Shown here: positions 5,265 through 33,615 of the stretch, in pieces
Layout: each line of letters starts with the position of its first letter
Numbering within the stretch: the stretch's first letter is position 1
From: Sulfolobales archaeon
Lineage (GTDB): Archaea; Thermoproteota; Thermoprotei_A; Sulfolobales; NBVN01
Length of the DNA: 64,000 nucleotides
Reading direction: 5' to 3'
NCBI GenBank assembly: GCA_038831135.1
Contig: JAWBKW010000001.1
Span: 5,614-69,613 of the forward strand
Translations under genes and position numbers: made by a program
Notes under the pieces: generated by a model
The model's database searches: none
Told to the model about the DNA's origin: nothing
The model's input: only the letters and a program-made list of their open reading frames with translations

Positions 5265-5373
5265 GGGGCCGTAGTCTAGCTTGGCTAGGATGCCAGCCTG
5301 GGGAGGAATCCCCACCGGACCGCTGGTAGGGCATACCTCAGTAAGGTCCCGGGTTCAAATCCCGGCGGCCCCA
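5265..5373 (+). tRNA. tRNA-Pro (GGG) with two introns
   Basis: Acceptor GGGGCCG/CGGCCCC plus discriminator A. T arm CCGGG-TTCAAAT-CCCGG. Anticodon stem CCAGC/GCTGG with loop CTGGGG..C and anticodon at 5300-5302. The gene is 109 nt, about 34 nt too long. A 17-nt insert at 5304-5320 follows position 37. A second ~17-nt insert lies within 5327-5348, in the variable-loop region. No encoded CCA. Confidence 0.85.
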
Positions 5374-13497: not shown

Positions 13498-15432
13498 TTA
13501 TTTTGGCACTAATTTACTCACTCTACTCGGTCCTGGTATCTTAAGGACTAATTCATTTAAGTCTATGTATCTTAACCTTTTATCGTTACTTACGAAGAAC
13601 TCAACTAATTTTTTGGCAATGATTTCCTTCTTCTCTGTTCCCGGACATAATAACACGTAATACTTACATTTACTGAATATATAGTCTTCAGGACCCACTA
13701 ATACCTTATAATATTTATCATCAATTATTGAGATACCTAAGGCTAATTCCAGCTTCACATTTCTTATGTAGTTTTTCTCACCGTAGATCATAAATGAACC
13801 GGGAGCTAAGTACTCACCAGCAGGCGCCTTCTTACTTACTTGCCTTCCATAAACCCAGAAGACATCTAGGCTTCCAAAACCTTCCTTCCACCCTTTACTA
13901 TAGCAGGCAGCTAATGTAGCCACTTCAAATAAGGTGTTTTCTGTAGTTTTTCCCCCACCTGATTTTAGTATAAATACGGGAGCTCCGACTATATCAGCAT
14001 GCATGAATATATCATCATCGTTGAGGTACTTCCTTACTAGCTTCTCGTTTTGACTAGAGTCTCTACCACCCAACGCCAGATAACCTTCAGATGTGATGAT
14101 CCAGTGATATTTATCGTACCAATCTACTTTCTTTGATATTGGTGGTGCACTAAGCGATTCCTTCTCAACTAGTAGAGAGCTTCTCTTACTCAGCGCTTCT
14201 TCGATAACCTCGTTAACTTTCTTAATCTTATCCTCAAAATCTTTTATCTGCATCTTAATCTTTATCAAGTAATTATTAACTCCTTCTCTTACGTTAAGCT
14301 CTATAGGGATGCCATTAATGTTCACTATAAATGTTCCTCTACTTCTATCATAGCTTGATGTACCGCAAGAATTAACATGCTCCCAACCATATTTCTTGAC
14401 TGCATCCCAGACACACCTATATATCTCTTCCAAGGTGTTATAATTTAATGAGACAATGTCGTGAATTGTTTTAAGTTCATCTAATTTCTTAGTATAATTA
14501 TTTAATTCAACCTTAAGGTCGACGATTAATTTCTCAATTCTAGCTAATTCATCATTTAACGATTTAGAGTCTTGAGTGATAACCTCAGTAGCAAATAATT
14601 TAAGAAAGTACTCATCAACTGCCTCATTAAAACTCTCAAACGGAAGGACGCTTAGAGATTCCTTAAATGTTGTAGGTTTGAAGGGGAGGAATGAAACGTA
14701 ATTACCGTCTTTAGTGATGATCACCGGTTCCGGATTTTCAATAACATTATTTACAAAACGTACTATCTTGTCCCTAATTCCTGATGTTATAGCCTCAGAT
14801 ATAGTAACCTTCTCATAGCTATCTTTTAGTACTTCATTAACTATCTCAGGCGGTATCCCTAACCCCCTTATCAGACCTCGTTGCAGGTTATCGTACTTAA
14901 TTAATGCCTCAAACCATTCTTGAACACTCAACACTCTAAAGTCTTTGTAGATTGGTGGTAAAGTATAGGTCCTCCCTATGATGACCTTTCTATCCTTAAC
15001 TTTAAGCTCTTTAGTAGTAATTAATACCCTATCTTCGGAATCTACTAGCGATGCTATTCCGCGAGGTATTAATTCCACATAGAGATTATAGGTATTCTCT
15101 CTACCTTCAAGTTCTATAACAGCGATCCTCTCAAACTCTACTTGCTTAATATTTCTTACTTTTAAGTTATTCAGATATCTTCTAAACAGAGATGTTTTAC
15201 CTGAAACTTGAAGCCGAGATACGGTCTTAGTGACATGGAGTCTCTCAGCAGGTTTCAGAAGTAGGTATAGGGTTTCAGCAGGGTTCCTCAACTTTAGTAT
15301 AAGGCTGCCCACCGCATCATTATAAACATTATCTATATATGAATTTACTATCTTATCCTTTAATTCTTTTATTATAACTGCTAAATCAAGAGAGCTGAAA
15401 GCCTTCTTCATGGGCAAATCTTTACTTGACAT
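13498..15432 (-). CDS. NFACT/Rqc2-family protein (FbpA N-terminal domain + DUF814), ribosome quality control homolog
   Basis: 644 aa. NFACT-N-like N-terminus, central coiled coil and a C-terminal NFACT-R/DUF814 segment (DDIFMHADIVGAPVFILK). Confidence 0.8.
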   Translation of the reverse strand: MSSKDLPMKKAFSSLDLAVIIKELKDKIVNSYIDNVYNDAVGSLILKLRNPAETLYLLLKPAERLHVTKTVSRLQVSGKTSLFRRYLNNLKVRNIKQVEFERIAVIELEGRENTYNLYVELIPRGIASLVDSEDRVLITTKELKVKDRKVIIGRTYTLPPIYKDFRVLSVQEWFEALIKYDNLQRGLIRGLGIPPEIVNEVLKDSYEKVTISEAITSGIRDKIVRFVNNVIENPEPVIITKDGNYVSFLPFKPTTFKESLSVLPFESFNEAVDEYFLKLFATEVITQDSKSLNDELARIEKLIVDLKVELNNYTKKLDELKTIHDIVSLNYNTLEEIYRCVWDAVKKYGWEHVNSCGTSSYDRSRGTFIVNINGIPIELNVREGVNNYLIKIKMQIKDFEDKIKKVNEVIEEALSKRSSLLVEKESLSAPPISKKVDWYDKYHWIITSEGYLALGGRDSSQNEKLVRKYLNDDDIFMHADIVGAPVFILKSGGGKTTENTLFEVATLAACYSKGWKEGFGSLDVFWVYGRQVSKKAPAGEYLAPGSFMIYGEKNYIRNVKLELALGISIIDDKYYKVLVGPEDYIFSKCKYYVLLCPGTEKKEIIAKKLVEFFVSNDKRLRYIDLNELVLKIPGPSRVSKLVPK

Positions 15433-16560: not shown

Positions 16561-18684
16561 TTAGTCTATCCAATCCCTTACCTCAAGTTTTTTAGGTATA
16601 TATTCATCCATTAAGAACTTAAGTCCTTTACTAGTGAGCGCCTCTATCTCTAATTTTGCTCCCTTATTCATGAATATGTCGATCTCGTTTTTCCATCTAG
16701 GTGTTTGGAACCATCTATAGTTTATTAGTTCTTTAGCTCTCTTTATGTCCCTATCCTTGGCTTTAATTATGTAGTTCCTTCTCTCAGACTCTGAGAGATA
16801 GGGACTCTTCTTGATGTTGGGACTTCCGAAAATATCTGAAGGCATTACACCTAGAAACCTAAGGCCAGGGGTAGCTAGCCTCTCACTCTCATACGATAGT
16901 GTTATAGAACCTATTTTGAAGACGCTGTAGATATACCATCCGTAAGGGTCGCTATTATGGTATATTACCCCGTAAGAACCTATGAAGGAATTACATTCTG
17001 GTACCATGAAATCATATACGTAACCAGTATAGTCCTCCTCCAAAATATCTATTACCTCAGCGAACGTTACATGGGTTGAAGGAATTTCCGTCAAATTAAG
17101 GCGTTTAATTGATGGGAGGCTTATCTTAATTAAATCCTTATATTCATCAACACCATATGGTAGTATACTTAATGAGAGTAAGATGTTAAATATTTGCTTA
17201 GCCCTAACTCTATCCTCTACGATAAGTACAGGGACCCCATCTTCATAACTTAAACATCCATAATTTTCAAATATTTTTTTAAGGAAGTCTACAGCACCCT
17301 CATCATACTTATATAGATTTACGTAATCACCCCTTAACACGTTACTTGCACTTGACGAAGTACTTACATCACTATATTGTAAGTATGTTTTACGGTCTAA
17401 AGCTTGTTTATTATAGCTAGATACCTCTATAGCTAACTTAGATACGCTTTCGGTTAGATATTCACCATCATCAACGTCTTGGTTAGTCAAGAAGTTAGGG
17501 GCTACCGCTAATGTTGGAATTTTCTCTATTGCAGTACTTGTCCTTAATATAGGTGGTAAATTCGAAGCAACTAATATATGATCACCTGGTCTTAGGCTCC
17601 GCGCCGGTAAGACAGCTATAACCCCATCCCTTAAGACGAAGAGAGAGTGACCTCCTGTGACTTTAACTGTTCCTCTATTATTAGTTCTTATCGATAATAC
17701 CTTATCATTTATCCAGTGTCTGTAGGCGTAACCTATCTTCCTCCACTCAATGTTTCCTGATATAGGGTCCCATGCAGGAACTTCTAGGTCTATGAAGATC
17801 CTCTCTTTCTCGCTGTTGCTAAAGTAATGACCTATTAATTCCTCCACAGGACCTACTCTAACTATGTCATTCTTTGGATCCTTAATTATTACAACTTCAT
17901 CTGCTGGTATGCTATCGGTTATTATGTAGGTTGGGAGGTTCAACTCATCACTTAATCTTCTAACGAATCTTCTGGTGGCTCTATCAGGTTGACCTGCACT
18001 AGTTATTAGAAGCGTTTTATACTTTCTCCAAAATCCTGCTCTATGGAGTTGTTGGAACACAGCATCTTTCTCGACGATTAATACATATTCAGCGTCTACG
18101 TCTAGGAATTCTATGAGGTCAGGTGTAGGCTCTATTGAGTAGGCCCCATGCCCCATCTTACTTAGGTCTATGACGTCATCTCCAGATCTTATCCTCATAT
18201 TACCAACGATCTTGCCCTTCTCCTTACTCAGTATTAGTAGCTCCTCCCTAAGGAGATTTATAAACACTTCAATGTCTCTAATAATTCCGTCGGATTCTTT
18301 CTGTTCATCCCACGTATTCTCGTTCTCGATTTTATTGCTAGCTGTGCGGTATCTTATGGTATGCTTACCTCTATAGAATAGGTCACGGATTGTTGGGTAC
18401 TCATTATTAATTAACGACTCATATATTATTCTGGCCATAACTACGGTTTGCATAAATTTCTTAGCTTCCCTAATATCTAAGAATGTTCTACTTAATGTTT
18501 CAGGACCTAATAGTAGGAGTTTCCTCTCTTCATCGTAAATCGTATTACTTAACGTCCTCTTCGGAAGTATTATAGTAGGACTCTCACCTTTAATGATCTG
18601 TTTAACAAGCTCCCTGAACTTCTCAACCATAACACTTACTGCTTTATCTCTTGCCCTTCTATCAACTGAAGAAATTAATTGCAT
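16561..18684 (-). CDS. top6A: DNA topoisomerase VI subunit A (Spo11 homolog), intein-containing precursor
   Basis: 707 aa. Catalytic Tyr motif TIRDLFYRG. Toprim region VLIVEKDAVFQQL...LLITSAGQPDRATRRFV...YIITD/SDPYGWYIYS is interrupted by a 320-aa insert. The extein totals 387 aa, normal for Top6A. It lies directly downstream of top6B. Confidence 0.9.
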   Translation of the reverse strand: MQLISSVDRRARDKAVSVMVEKFRELVKQIIKGESPTIILPKRTLSNTIYDEERKLLLLGPETLSRTFLDIREAKKFMQTVVMARIIYESLINNEYPTIRDLFYRGKHTIRYRTASNKIENENTWDEQKESDGIIRDIEVFINLLREELLILSKEKGKIVGNMRIRSGDDVIDLSKMGHGAYSIEPTPDLIEFLDVDAEYVLIVEKDAVFQQLHRAGFWRKYKTLLITSAGQPDRATRRFVRRLSDELNLPTYIITDSIPADEVVIIKDPKNDIVRVGPVEELIGHYFSNSEKERIFIDLEVPAWDPISGNIEWRKIGYAYRHWINDKVLSIRTNNRGTVKVTGGHSLFVLRDGVIAVLPARSLRPGDHILVASNLPPILRTSTAIEKIPTLAVAPNFLTNQDVDDGEYLTESVSKLAIEVSSYNKQALDRKTYLQYSDVSTSSSASNVLRGDYVNLYKYDEGAVDFLKKIFENYGCLSYEDGVPVLIVEDRVRAKQIFNILLSLSILPYGVDEYKDLIKISLPSIKRLNLTEIPSTHVTFAEVIDILEEDYTGYVYDFMVPECNSFIGSYGVIYHNSDPYGWYIYSVFKIGSITLSYESERLATPGLRFLGVMPSDIFGSPNIKKSPYLSESERRNYIIKAKDRDIKRAKELINYRWFQTPRWKNEIDIFMNKGAKLEIEALTSKGLKFLMDEYIPKKLEVRDWID
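16954..17913 (-). mobile_element. Intein (aa 258-577 of Top6A), Ser1 / Ser+1, in the Toprim DxD motif
   Basis: N-terminal splice block SIPADEVVIIKD. Block B is KVTGGHSLFVL (TxxH) and block F is YVYDFMVPECNSFIG. Block G is GVIYHN followed by S. Removing the insert joins YIITD to SDPYGW. The central region has only a degenerate LAGLIDADG-like motif (FLKKIFENYGCLSYEDG). Confidence 0.8.
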
Positions 18685-18692
18685 GAGATCAC

Positions 18693-20291
18693 CTACTCAA
18701 CACTTAAAACGACGTCATTGACTCCCTTAACTTTAATATTCTTGAATTTCTTAAGGATTAGACCCATTAATAGCTCAGATATAGATTCATGAGATGTTTC
18801 ATTAGTAATTCTGGCTAGTGATGTAGCCACGTCCGGTATATACTTAATAATATTGATAGCTTTCTCAATCTCCTCAACCTCCCTACGTCTCTTAACAATG
18901 TATAACTTCAACTCACGTGCTACATCCCTGATACAGCTTTCAACCTCTTTCTCAACTTCAGGTACGTCAGCAATACTTTCCTTACCAACACCCTTATACG
19001 GTACTTTAGTACTACATATATGGACTAGAATGACTAGCGGTGCTGGCCACTTAACTTCATAGACATCCCATTTTATGATTCCGTTCTTGGGCTCAATTAC
19101 TTTCCATACAACGTCGGAACTTTCATCATAAAGTAATGGGATCTTGTTAGCGAATCTTAGCAGTAGAGGCTCTTCAGACGGCGGTATATCACCTCCATAA
19201 GCTATACCAGCTTCAACGATAAATGGATGTCCTTCATAGACTTTCGCTTTACGTGTCCTGGCTGCCACGAATTCCGGCTTCAATATAACCTTCAAACCTG
19301 TCTTTATGATTTCCTCACCTAGGTATGAGAGGTGGTCAGCCCTCGGCGGTTTGAAGTTATTGTATTCTTTTAAGGTCTTAACAAGCGTTTCTATCTCTTC
19401 GTTAGTTAAGTTCTTAGGATCTTTTAGTGGATCTATCTTAACTATTTCTGTTATGGTGTTCGCAGTTATCTCACCTATTCCTTGAAATTCTCTAATTAGG
19501 AAGTCTTTAAGGGTTTTAGTATTTGTTGATTGTATTAACATCTTAAATAACTCTATATCGACTCCTTGCGGGTGCGGTTTAACTTCACGCGGTGGTTTAG
19601 GCATTAATGTAGTGCTTCTCTCAAAATAAATTAAGTTATTTGACGGATCTTTAAATATTATTGAGGCGTAAGGAGCTATTATGGCGGTTCGTTTTAGGTA
19701 CTCATATATCTTCGGTTTAGCCCTATTCCAATCACCTTCTATAAATAACTTAACTATGGTTCCATGCCAATCACTTTCCTTTCTGAAGGAAGCCCTATAG
19801 AGGATTATTGGTTTATTTTCCTTAATGTCAATAAGTAACCTGAACGCGTAGATCCTCGATGAGTTTATTGTCGAGGAAATCACCTCTACAGGCTTACCGG
19901 TTGTTAATTGCCCATAAAGTACAGCCATCTTAGCGCCAAGCCCGAACATACCCCTAGTCTGTCGAAGCACGTACTTAGAGCTATATAGTAATTGAGCAAA
20001 CGCTTGAGGTACGTTGTCTGGCGGTATACCTATTCCGTTATCTTCTACACTAACTAGGTAAACATCAGGTCTCTCAGGCATAACATCAGAGTCTATAGAT
20101 ACTTTAATAACTGGTAATATACCATGAGAGTCTGCAGCGTCGAGGGCGTTTTCAACTAGTTCTCTAACTGCTTGGTAAATAGCTCTTACAGGGTTTGAGA
20201 AGCCTGCAATCTCTTTATTACGGTAGAAAAATTCAGCAGCACTTAAGCTCCTAAACTTCTCATTGCTTGAGATACTCATACTTACTATCAC
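18693..20291 (-). CDS. top6B: DNA topoisomerase VI subunit B (GHKL ATPase)
   Basis: 532 aa. Bergerat-fold N box ELVENALDA, G1 box DNGIGIP and G2-like GMFGLGAKM. It lies 8 nt upstream of top6A. Confidence 0.9.
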   Translation of the reverse strand: MIVSMSISSNEKFRSLSAAEFFYRNKEIAGFSNPVRAIYQAVRELVENALDAADSHGILPVIKVSIDSDVMPERPDVYLVSVEDNGIGIPPDNVPQAFAQLLYSSKYVLRQTRGMFGLGAKMAVLYGQLTTGKPVEVISSTINSSRIYAFRLLIDIKENKPIILYRASFRKESDWHGTIVKLFIEGDWNRAKPKIYEYLKRTAIIAPYASIIFKDPSNNLIYFERSTTLMPKPPREVKPHPQGVDIELFKMLIQSTNTKTLKDFLIREFQGIGEITANTITEIVKIDPLKDPKNLTNEEIETLVKTLKEYNNFKPPRADHLSYLGEEIIKTGLKVILKPEFVAARTRKAKVYEGHPFIVEAGIAYGGDIPPSEEPLLLRFANKIPLLYDESSDVVWKVIEPKNGIIKWDVYEVKWPAPLVILVHICSTKVPYKGVGKESIADVPEVEKEVESCIRDVARELKLYIVKRRREVEEIEKAINIIKYIPDVATSLARITNETSHESISELLMGLILKKFKNIKVKGVNDVVLSVE

Positions 20292-32096: not shown

Positions 32097-32192
32097 GCCG
32101 CCGTAGCTCAGCCTGGGAGAGCGCCCGTTGAGCGGTAGGCTCAGGCGAAGCTGAAGACCGGGATGTCGGGGGTTCAAGTCCCCCCGGCGGCA
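32097..32192 (+). tRNA. tRNA-Phe (GAA) with a 22-nt intron inside the anticodon stem (between positions 30 and 31)
   Basis: Acceptor GCCGCCG/CGGCGGC plus A. D arm GCTC-AGCCTGGGA-GAGC. T arm GGGGG-TTCAAGT-CCCCC. Removing 32128-32149 (TTGAGCGGTAGGCTCAGGCGAA) gives anticodon arm CCCGG-CTGAAGA-CCGGG, with the anticodon at 32153-32155. Confidence 0.85.
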
Positions 32193-33516: not shown

Positions 33517-33615
33517 TGGTGCCGCGGCCGGGATTTGAACCCGGGTCACGGGCTATCCCTGCAGGAGTTAAGTCTCGAGAGGCCCGCATACTTGACCGGG
33601 CTATACTACCGCGGC
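33517..33615 (-). tRNA. tRNA-Glu (CTC) with a 21-nt canonical (37/38) intron and an encoded CCA
   Basis: The reverse complement reads GCCGCGG-TA-GTATAGCCCGGTCAAGTAT-G-CGGGC-CTCTCG[AGACTTAACTCCTGCAGGGAT]A-GCCCG-TGAC-CCGGG-TTCAAAT-CCCGG-CCGCGGC-A-CCA. Confidence 0.85.

Follow-up and report, generated by a model that had tools for sequence, protein, structure and literature searches.

A class-1 intein with an apparently decayed homing endonuclease between the Toprim aspartates of topoisomerase VI subunit A in a Sulfolobales archaeon

How can a topoisomerase gene give rise to a working enzyme when 320 extra residues separate the two aspartates of its metal-binding site? The question is raised by top6A, the gene for subunit A of DNA topoisomerase VI (Topo VI), in a 64,000-nucleotide (nt) stretch of DNA from a Sulfolobales archaeon (GenBank assembly GCA_038831135.1, contig JAWBKW010000001.1, positions 5,614 to 69,613), hereafter called the window, to whose positions all coordinates below refer. 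The open reading frame (ORF) lies at 16561–18684 on the (−) strand and encodes a precursor of 707 amino acids (aa) and 81.4 kDa, consisting of an N-extein, an intein, and a C-extein. An earlier note, made from the letters of the window, had proposed that one contiguous extra block, aa 258–577, is an intein that splits the DxD motif of the Toprim domain, and had guessed that its endonuclease was decayed. Both ideas were borne out by the analyses described here, and the best explanation of the locus as a whole, to which we assign a probability of about 0.9, is that a class-1 intein with a decayed endonuclease has become fixed in top6A of an uncultured, thermophilic crenarchaeon lineage.

The limits of the block were set by comparison with the Top6A of S. 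shibatae (PDB 2zbk_A, 389 aa), which covered residues 2–258 and 578–706 of the ORF at about 75% identity and nothing between them, its two halves abutting at YILTD|ADPYGW where the window counterpart in the alignment reads IITD|…|SDPYGW. The NCBIfam equivalog model of Top6A, NF003336, also matched in two stretches (650.9 bits against a cut-off of 531), and the Pfam domains TP6A_N, Topo_VI_alpha, and a split TOP6A-Spo11_Toprim were found in the ORF, with PF21180, PF04406, and PF20768 all above their cut-offs. The N-extein (aa 1–257; 17914–18684, (−) strand), defined by the alignment to 2zbk_A and by PF04406, PF20768, and PF21180, holds the winged-helix/5Y-CAP region with Tyr104 aligned with S. 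shibatae Tyr106, keeps the Toprim Glu205 within VEKDAVF, and has as its last residue Asp257, with which DxD begins. The C-extein (aa 578–707 plus the stop codon; 16561–16953, (−) strand), which corresponds to positions 58–170 of the PF21180 profile, starts with Ser578, the +1 nucleophile, and continues with Asp579, the second D of DxD, and PYGW. Tyr104, Glu205, and the DxD aspartates are what we take to be the catalytic residues, from established knowledge of Top6A. The block is, in consequence, a single in-frame insert between both aspartates, with junction translations IITDSIPAD and IYHNSDP, and the DxD motif that is split in the precursor is regained as D257-S-D once the intein is removed. 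Removal leaves a Top6A of 387 aa, as the earlier note had calculated, with a mass of 45.3 kDa and reading …YIITDSDPYGWYIY…, and the junction IITDSDPYGW occurs as such in nature, in intein-free alleles including P0079 and P0093.

The insert itself (320 aa, 36.0 kDa; 16954–17913, (−) strand) was assigned to the class-1 type (Ser1 … His-Asn) from PF14890, TIGR01443, an AlphaFold2 (AF2) model, and Foldseek. PF14890 (Intein_splicing) matched it with 66.5 bits against a cut-off of 35.8 (E-value 3e-18), and TIGR01443 (intein_Cterm) with 20.0 bits against 15.6. It also matched the intein portions of the models for RNA polymerase A'', Tes, RFC, and IF2 and, by sequence, the solved inteins PI-PkoII, Pho RadA, and TFIIB. 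The AF2 model, built on a 64-sequence alignment, had a predicted local distance difference test score (pLDDT) of 79.6 overall and a predicted template modelling score (pTM) of 0.79, with pLDDT >93 for residues 1–125 and 280–320. These correspond closely to the two lobes of a Hint domain, an N-terminal one made of intein residues 1–125 (17539–17913, (−) strand; pLDDT >93) and a C-terminal one made of residues 276–320 (16954–17088, (−) strand; pLDDT ~97). When the model was searched with Foldseek against the PDB, places 1–41 were all inteins, and places 1–47 were inteins or closely related splicing or intein-like domains, the leading matches being 2cw7 (E-value 1.2e-11), 7qsu/7qst, 5o9i (target TM-score, TMt, 0.83), and 4e2t (TMt 0.81).

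All the splicing blocks that the earlier note had located were recovered. The block A nucleophile is Ser258, block B carries TxxH as Thr343-G-G-His346 in VTGGHS (within 17647–17658), block F contains Asp558 (17011–17013) in VYDFM, and block G ends in His576-Asn577 (16954–16959), followed by Ser578 as +1. In intein numbering, S1, T86, and H89 of the N-terminal lobe and D301, H319, and N320 of the C-terminal lobe were invariant across 64 homologues that are 27–59% identical to the window intein. Profiles, matches to solved inteins, predicted fold, and invariant splicing residues thus agree that the insert is a genuine class-1 intein of the Hint superfamily. The codons of Ser1 (17911–17913) and Ser+1 (16951–16953) are both AGC on the (−) strand (…GAT|AGC ATA… and …AAT|AGC GAC…), so the ends of the element at the DNA level are ambiguous by 3 nt. 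All intein-bearing alleles have serine at +1, a position taken by Ser or Ala in alleles without the intein. The latter alleles (P0083–P0121) fall into two types, TD-S-DPYG and TD-A-DPYG, and as Ala at +1 is unable to support splicing, those of the Ala type would tolerate invasion only if homing co-converts the codon.

In contrast to the Hint lobes, the middle of the intein appears to be the remains of an endonuclease. Intein residues 126–204 (~79 aa; 17302–17538, (−) strand), a decayed endonuclease region delimited by pLDDT <50, substitution rates, indels, and the multiple sequence alignment (MSA), are predicted to be disordered and show 24–29% identity with 30–47 gap positions even inside the clade of the window. 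Residues 205–275 (17089–17301, (−) strand; pLDDT ~90) are modelled with confidence as αββαββ, which is how a single LAGLIDADG half-domain is built, and align in the MSA with the second half-domain. In the MSA with full-size alleles of the same site, which have motif 1 (e.g., AWLLGIYTAEG), motif 2 (e.g., YIKGLIDGDGY), a C-terminal extension, and PF14528 matches, the window intein lacks LAGLIDADG motif 1 and the entire first half-domain, and the C-terminal DNA-recognition extension is deleted. Where those alleles have a motif 2 such as YIKGLIDGDGY, the window intein has a degenerate FLKKIFENYGC, in which Tyr takes up the position of the second Asp of DGDG; this position supplies the catalytic acid in LAGLIDADG enzymes. 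No PF14528 match was obtained in the window intein at E-values up to 1, and a 312-position endonuclease profile built from 60 full-size alleles recognised only intein residues 229–264 (VLIVEDRVRAKQIFNILLSLSILPYGVDEYKDLIKI), that is, 37 of its positions, with 13.6 bits. The element, with 320 aa, a linker of 79 residues, and a half-domain remnant that still folds in the model, is therefore larger than a mini-intein (Hint only, ~130–200 aa), and it differs from an active two-motif LAGLIDADG endonuclease in its absent motif 1 and degenerate motif 2. Judged from its sequence, the homing endonuclease is evidently dead, with one half-domain remnant left.

The different parts of the ORF also differ in the constraint acting on them. 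Non-synonymous and synonymous differences per site (pN and pS) were compared between the window and four relatives of its clade (L001, L002, L003, and L049), of which only the pN gradient was used because synonymous sites were saturated. Values of pN were 0.05–0.08 in the extein, 0.15–0.20 in the Hint lobes, 0.32–0.38 in the half-domain remnant, and 0.51–0.62 in the disordered linker, the last approximately equal to the (saturated) pS of 0.58–0.77. The extein is thus strongly constrained, the splicing domain moderately, and the former endonuclease mostly unconstrained. A near-identical locus in another sample (L071:3001–5124, Logan SRR21619488) differs from 16561–18684 at 8 of 2124 nt and encodes a 99.6%-identical protein with the same neighbours; all five synonymous changes lie in the extein and all three non-synonymous ones (V340I, I386V, Y409H) in the intein, small counts that nevertheless point in the same direction as the pN gradient. 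Since the extein is under strong purifying selection, the host protein must be functional, and such a gradient is what would be expected if the precursor must splice to give a working enzyme; it speaks against a pseudogene and equally against an insert that is permanent and functional. Base composition was considered as a sign of foreign origin and rejected: the intein has a guanine plus cytosine (GC) content of 0.373 against 0.390 in the extein, and 0.31 against 0.40 at third codon positions (GC3), a small difference concentrated in the decayed part and hence attributable to relaxed selection and not to recent acquisition.

From these data, the following course of events can be proposed. In the 81-kDa precursor that translation would yield, Asp257 is kept apart from Ser578-Asp579 by the Hint domain, and with 320 residues between Asp257 and Asp579, the Mg2+ site of the Toprim DxD cannot form. 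By the canonical mechanism, Ser258 would undergo an N-O acyl shift aided by Thr343 and His346 of block B, Ser578 would then attack, with transesterification to a branched intermediate, Asn577 would cyclise with the aid of His576 and the block F Asp558, and an O-N shift would complete the reaction. The predicted products are a free 36-kDa intein and a 45-kDa Top6A with the native …IITD-S-DPYGW… sequence, whose ligated junction peptide should be LSDELNLPTYIITDSDPYGWYIYSVFK, and which would pair with the Top6B encoded upstream. That Topo VI activity depends strictly on splicing can be inferred on sound grounds. In evolutionary terms, the ancestor would have been an intein of ~480 aa with a LAGLIDADG homing endonuclease, which in this lineage would have lost motif 1 and kept a degenerate motif 2, a neutral linker of ~79 residues, and one folded half-domain. 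With its endonuclease lost, the element would be immobile, no longer homing and now inherited vertically. Its persistence would follow from the difficulty of losing it, as any deletion short of a precise one would destroy the active site of what is probably the sole type II topoisomerase of the cell.

The history of the allele could be followed among its relatives, which proved to be numerous. The same 707-aa protein, identical throughout, is encoded on an independent Logan contig (P0002), in whose cluster a 100-aa fragment corresponds to an NCBI entry, from a metagenome-assembled genome (MAG), labelled “Sulfolobales archaeon”. PF14890 was detected in 82 of the best 120 Top6A clusters, and, in a collection of species-representative genomes that yielded 70 Top6A loci, 19 of these loci were intein-bearing, although both counts are biased, because the ranking favours longer matches and some of the search peptides were intein-derived, and are not prevalence estimates. 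All 82 clusters share the junctions (T/A/C)D|S(I/V)P…HN|SDPYG(W/F), and intein lengths at this site vary continuously between 241 and 489 aa, the full-size ones being of 415–489 aa. The 19 bearers comprise Desulfurococcaceae/Sulfolobales MAGs, Zestosphaera tikiterensis NZ3, Tiamatella, Thermofilum, and a “Thermoproteales” MAG, so that bearer MAGs span Desulfurococcales, Sulfolobales, and Thermofilaceae. In an exhaustive library clustered at 50% identity, nine representatives matched with E-values up to 1e-30, and those checked (by Pfam or by a match starting near residue 258) were Top6A; beyond them, scores dropped sharply to inteins of T2SSE-type ATPases, MCM, HerA, and Top6B at ~30–41% identity, which marks the Top6A alleles as a distinct family. 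A rarity of the intein, suggested by an intein-only word-index search that returned a single fragment (P0001), was rejected after the search with the full protein and the exhaustive search of representatives had shown otherwise. Alleles with and without the insert, both of which the earlier note had proposed to look for, were thus found. Seven of the intein-bearing alleles (P0021, P0032, P0049, P0058, P0062, P0067, and P0069) showed two further lineage-specific insertions in the C-extein, not found in the window, one of ~20–50 aa after …DIFG and another of ~20–30 aa before Y(P/R)WF, giving exteins of 430–466 aa against ~387 aa.

All members of the extein clade to which the window belongs (85–90% extein identity) carry the short form of the intein, of 280–320 aa. 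A neighbour-joining (NJ) tree was built from the Hint lobes, and in it the clade was monophyletic and placed beside alleles of 480–489 aa, inside the full-size ones. Short alleles (up to 381 aa) appeared in this tree at at least eight separate places among full-size alleles, which suggests repeated, independent decay of the endonuclease, with at least eight losses, and every short allele keeps the same half-domain remnant. The members of ~4% of the allele pairs resemble each other clearly more in their Hint lobes than in their exteins, as in P0074/P0078 (0.85 vs. 0.65), a pattern that hints at horizontal transfer by homing among endonuclease-bearing alleles; P0019/P0064 and P0050/P0057 are further such pairs. 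Only these outlier pairs were used, because the overall correlation between extein and Hint identity (Spearman 0.03) is uninformative given the narrow range of extein identities.

Some of what we found weighs against the proposed explanation or limits it. TIGR01445 (intein_Nterm) scored slightly under its cut-off (22.3 against 24.5). Splicing of the Top6A intein is deduced from its conserved residues and stays a prediction at that level. The saturation of synonymous sites (pS ~0.7, several dS undefined) makes any dN/dS only rough, and the NJ tree of Hint lobes has no support values. From what is generally known of Thermoprotei, no type II topoisomerase other than Topo VI would be expected in such an organism, and a second, intein-free copy of top6A may be present elsewhere in the genome.

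Among the alternatives, the one that survives best also has the intein splicing, as a domesticated element that would splice in response to temperature, Mg2+, DNA, or stress, so that it acts as a post-translational switch gating the activation of the only type II topoisomerase of these hyperthermophiles, with the half-domain remnant retained for this role. The endonuclease-less form is inherited through the whole clade with constrained Hint lobes, even alleles as short as 241 aa have kept the folded remnant, and the insertion is directly flanked by two metal-binding aspartates. There is a precedent for conditional splicing in inteins without an endonuclease (PMC8987985), and a switch of this kind has been proposed for one of them, the RadA intein of Pyrococcus. 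However, nothing in the data requires conditional splicing, the need to leave an essential protein by splicing accounts in full for the constraint on the Hint lobes, the linker evolves neutrally, and the at least eight independent endonuclease losses look like ordinary decay. In its redox-trap form, such regulation was ruled out, as positions 1 and +1 are both Ser and the Cys residues of the intein lie only at its positions 220 and 307, leaving no catalytic Cys on which a trap could act. We consider a regulatory switch, in either its gating function or its retention of the remnant, unlikely.

A second alternative is that the insert, although intein-derived, does not splice and has become a permanent domain, the active enzyme being the 707-aa protein itself. 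The indirect nature of the evidence for splicing of this ORF leaves it some room, yet the splicing residues, including Ser+1, are invariant over ~80 divergent alleles, a length range of 241–489 aa with a neutral middle is unlike a functional domain, and a 320-aa block between the DxD aspartates is incompatible with the Mg2+ site of a Top6A of the 2zbk type, all of which makes this reading very improbable. Hardly more credible is a still mobile intein, with a homing endonuclease of an atypical single-motif kind that has stayed active: the model gives one αββαββ half-domain a confident fold, and this half-domain is under some constraint, but motif 1 and the first half-domain are absent, motif 2 has Tyr for Asp, PF14528 does not match, ~37 of 312 profile positions are recognisable, the DNA-recognition extension is deleted, and the distribution within the clade fits vertical descent. 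Finally, an assembly or annotation artefact, or a top6A pseudogene, might come to mind given the metagenomic origin of the sequence, and is next to negligible in view of the identical protein on an independent contig, the 99.6%-identical variant with the same neighbours in another sample, an open frame with no competing ORF of at least 41 aa within the intein or on its opposite strand, and an extein under purifying selection.

Once the fixed class-1 intein with a decayed endonuclease is preferred over these alternatives, its relation to known inteins can be specified. In the main text of the surveys of Novikova 2016 (PMC4760082) and Soucy 2014 (PMC4071816), topoisomerase inteins are well documented in Top6B, TopA, GyrA/B, and reverse gyrase, and neither the Top6A host nor this insertion site is listed there. 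The only literature found on inteins of Top6A/Spo11 was a passing remark in PMC9348778, and no paper pairing “intein” with “topoisomerase VI subunit A” was found; the literature on Spo11 and inteins turned out to be irrelevant, as it concerns the yeast VDE endonuclease. On the other hand, some homologues have already been named “DNA topoisomerase VI subunit A/intein/homing endonuclease” by the pipeline of the Joint Genome Institute (JGI). The suggestion in the earlier note that none had been described at this site therefore holds for the literature searched, the remark in PMC9348778 aside, and fails for the databases, where the allele is common and sometimes annotated automatically.

Homologous to the window intein are the full-size Top6A inteins of MAGs (e.g., Zestosphaera tikiterensis NZ3, L008, and the entries so named by JGI), which occupy the same site with 27–59% identity and junctions TD|S(I/V)P…HN|SDPYG, and differ in their 415–489 aa with both LAGLIDADG motifs and PF14528 matches, absent from the window allele. 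The Top6B inteins of Haloarchaea and other Euryarchaeota, as described in the two surveys (PMC4071816, PMC4760082), belong to the same enzyme and have endonuclease domains of the LAGLIDADG type, but they reside in the ATPase B subunit, at another insertion site and in another archaeal phylum, and the Top6B of the window is intein-free. An intein-bearing Top6B from the representative library (P0152, 1034 aa) was nevertheless among the nearest non-Top6A relatives, with 41% identity in the Hint N-terminal lobe, and exchange between the two Topo VI subunit genes is a possibility. The solved LAGLIDADG inteins 2cw7 (PI-PkoII), 1dq3 (PI-PfuI), and 7qsu/7qst (Tli/Pho VMA), the best fold matches (E-values from 1e-11 to 3e-9), have the same Hint horseshoe, its N and C lobes parted by an inserted endonuclease domain, but at 12–15% identity and with complete two-motif endonucleases, in contrast to the half-domain remnant and disordered linker of the window intein. 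The Hint domain also superposes on those of the Pho RadA intein (4e2t) and the TFIIB mini-inteins (5o9i), with TMt of 0.81–0.83; these likewise do not home and are inherited vertically, but they are true mini-inteins of ~170 aa, whereas the window intein, of 320 aa, is in mid-decay. An insertion point in a Toprim active site, as here, has also been reported for an intein in a TOPRIM protein of mycobacteriophages (Kelley 2016, PMC5050341), although its host is a phage primase/topoisomerase-like protein without sequence kinship with Top6A, and the insertion is likened to ours by description.

Regarding the surroundings of the gene, top6B (532 aa, intein-free; 18693–20291, (−) strand; PF09239, PF02518) adjoins top6A directly upstream in the same orientation, in a gene order also found in L071, so that both genes probably form an operon in which Top6B is the partner subunit. 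Residues 233–310 of Top6B showed a sub-threshold match to Pfam NFACT_N (27.4 bits against a cut-off of 31), and a genuine NFACT-family protein is encoded ~3 kb from top6B, at 13498–15432 on the (−) strand; the likeness is probably a shared helical module and not functional. Elsewhere in the window, three tRNA genes of 96–109 nt were detected by Rfam, at 5265–5373 (+), 32097–32192 (+), and 33517–33615 (−), of which ARAGORN detected only the last (tRNA-Glu CTC); from their length, introns are presumed inside them, as is usual for Crenarchaeota.

In conclusion, the element is of an ordinary kind, and our finding leaves the understanding of how inteins work unchanged; its host site is common in metagenomic data of uncultured hot-spring archaea and essentially undescribed in the literature. 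Its position is unusual and mildly notable, as the intein is flanked on both sides by a metal-binding Asp. In MAGs, intein-bearing Top6A genes are labelled “hypothetical protein” or “LAGLIDADG endonuclease, partial”, and Top6A inteins need to be trimmed before topoisomerase phylogenies are built. The decay series at this single site, from 489 down to 241 aa, could in turn inform the design of minimal thermostable inteins.

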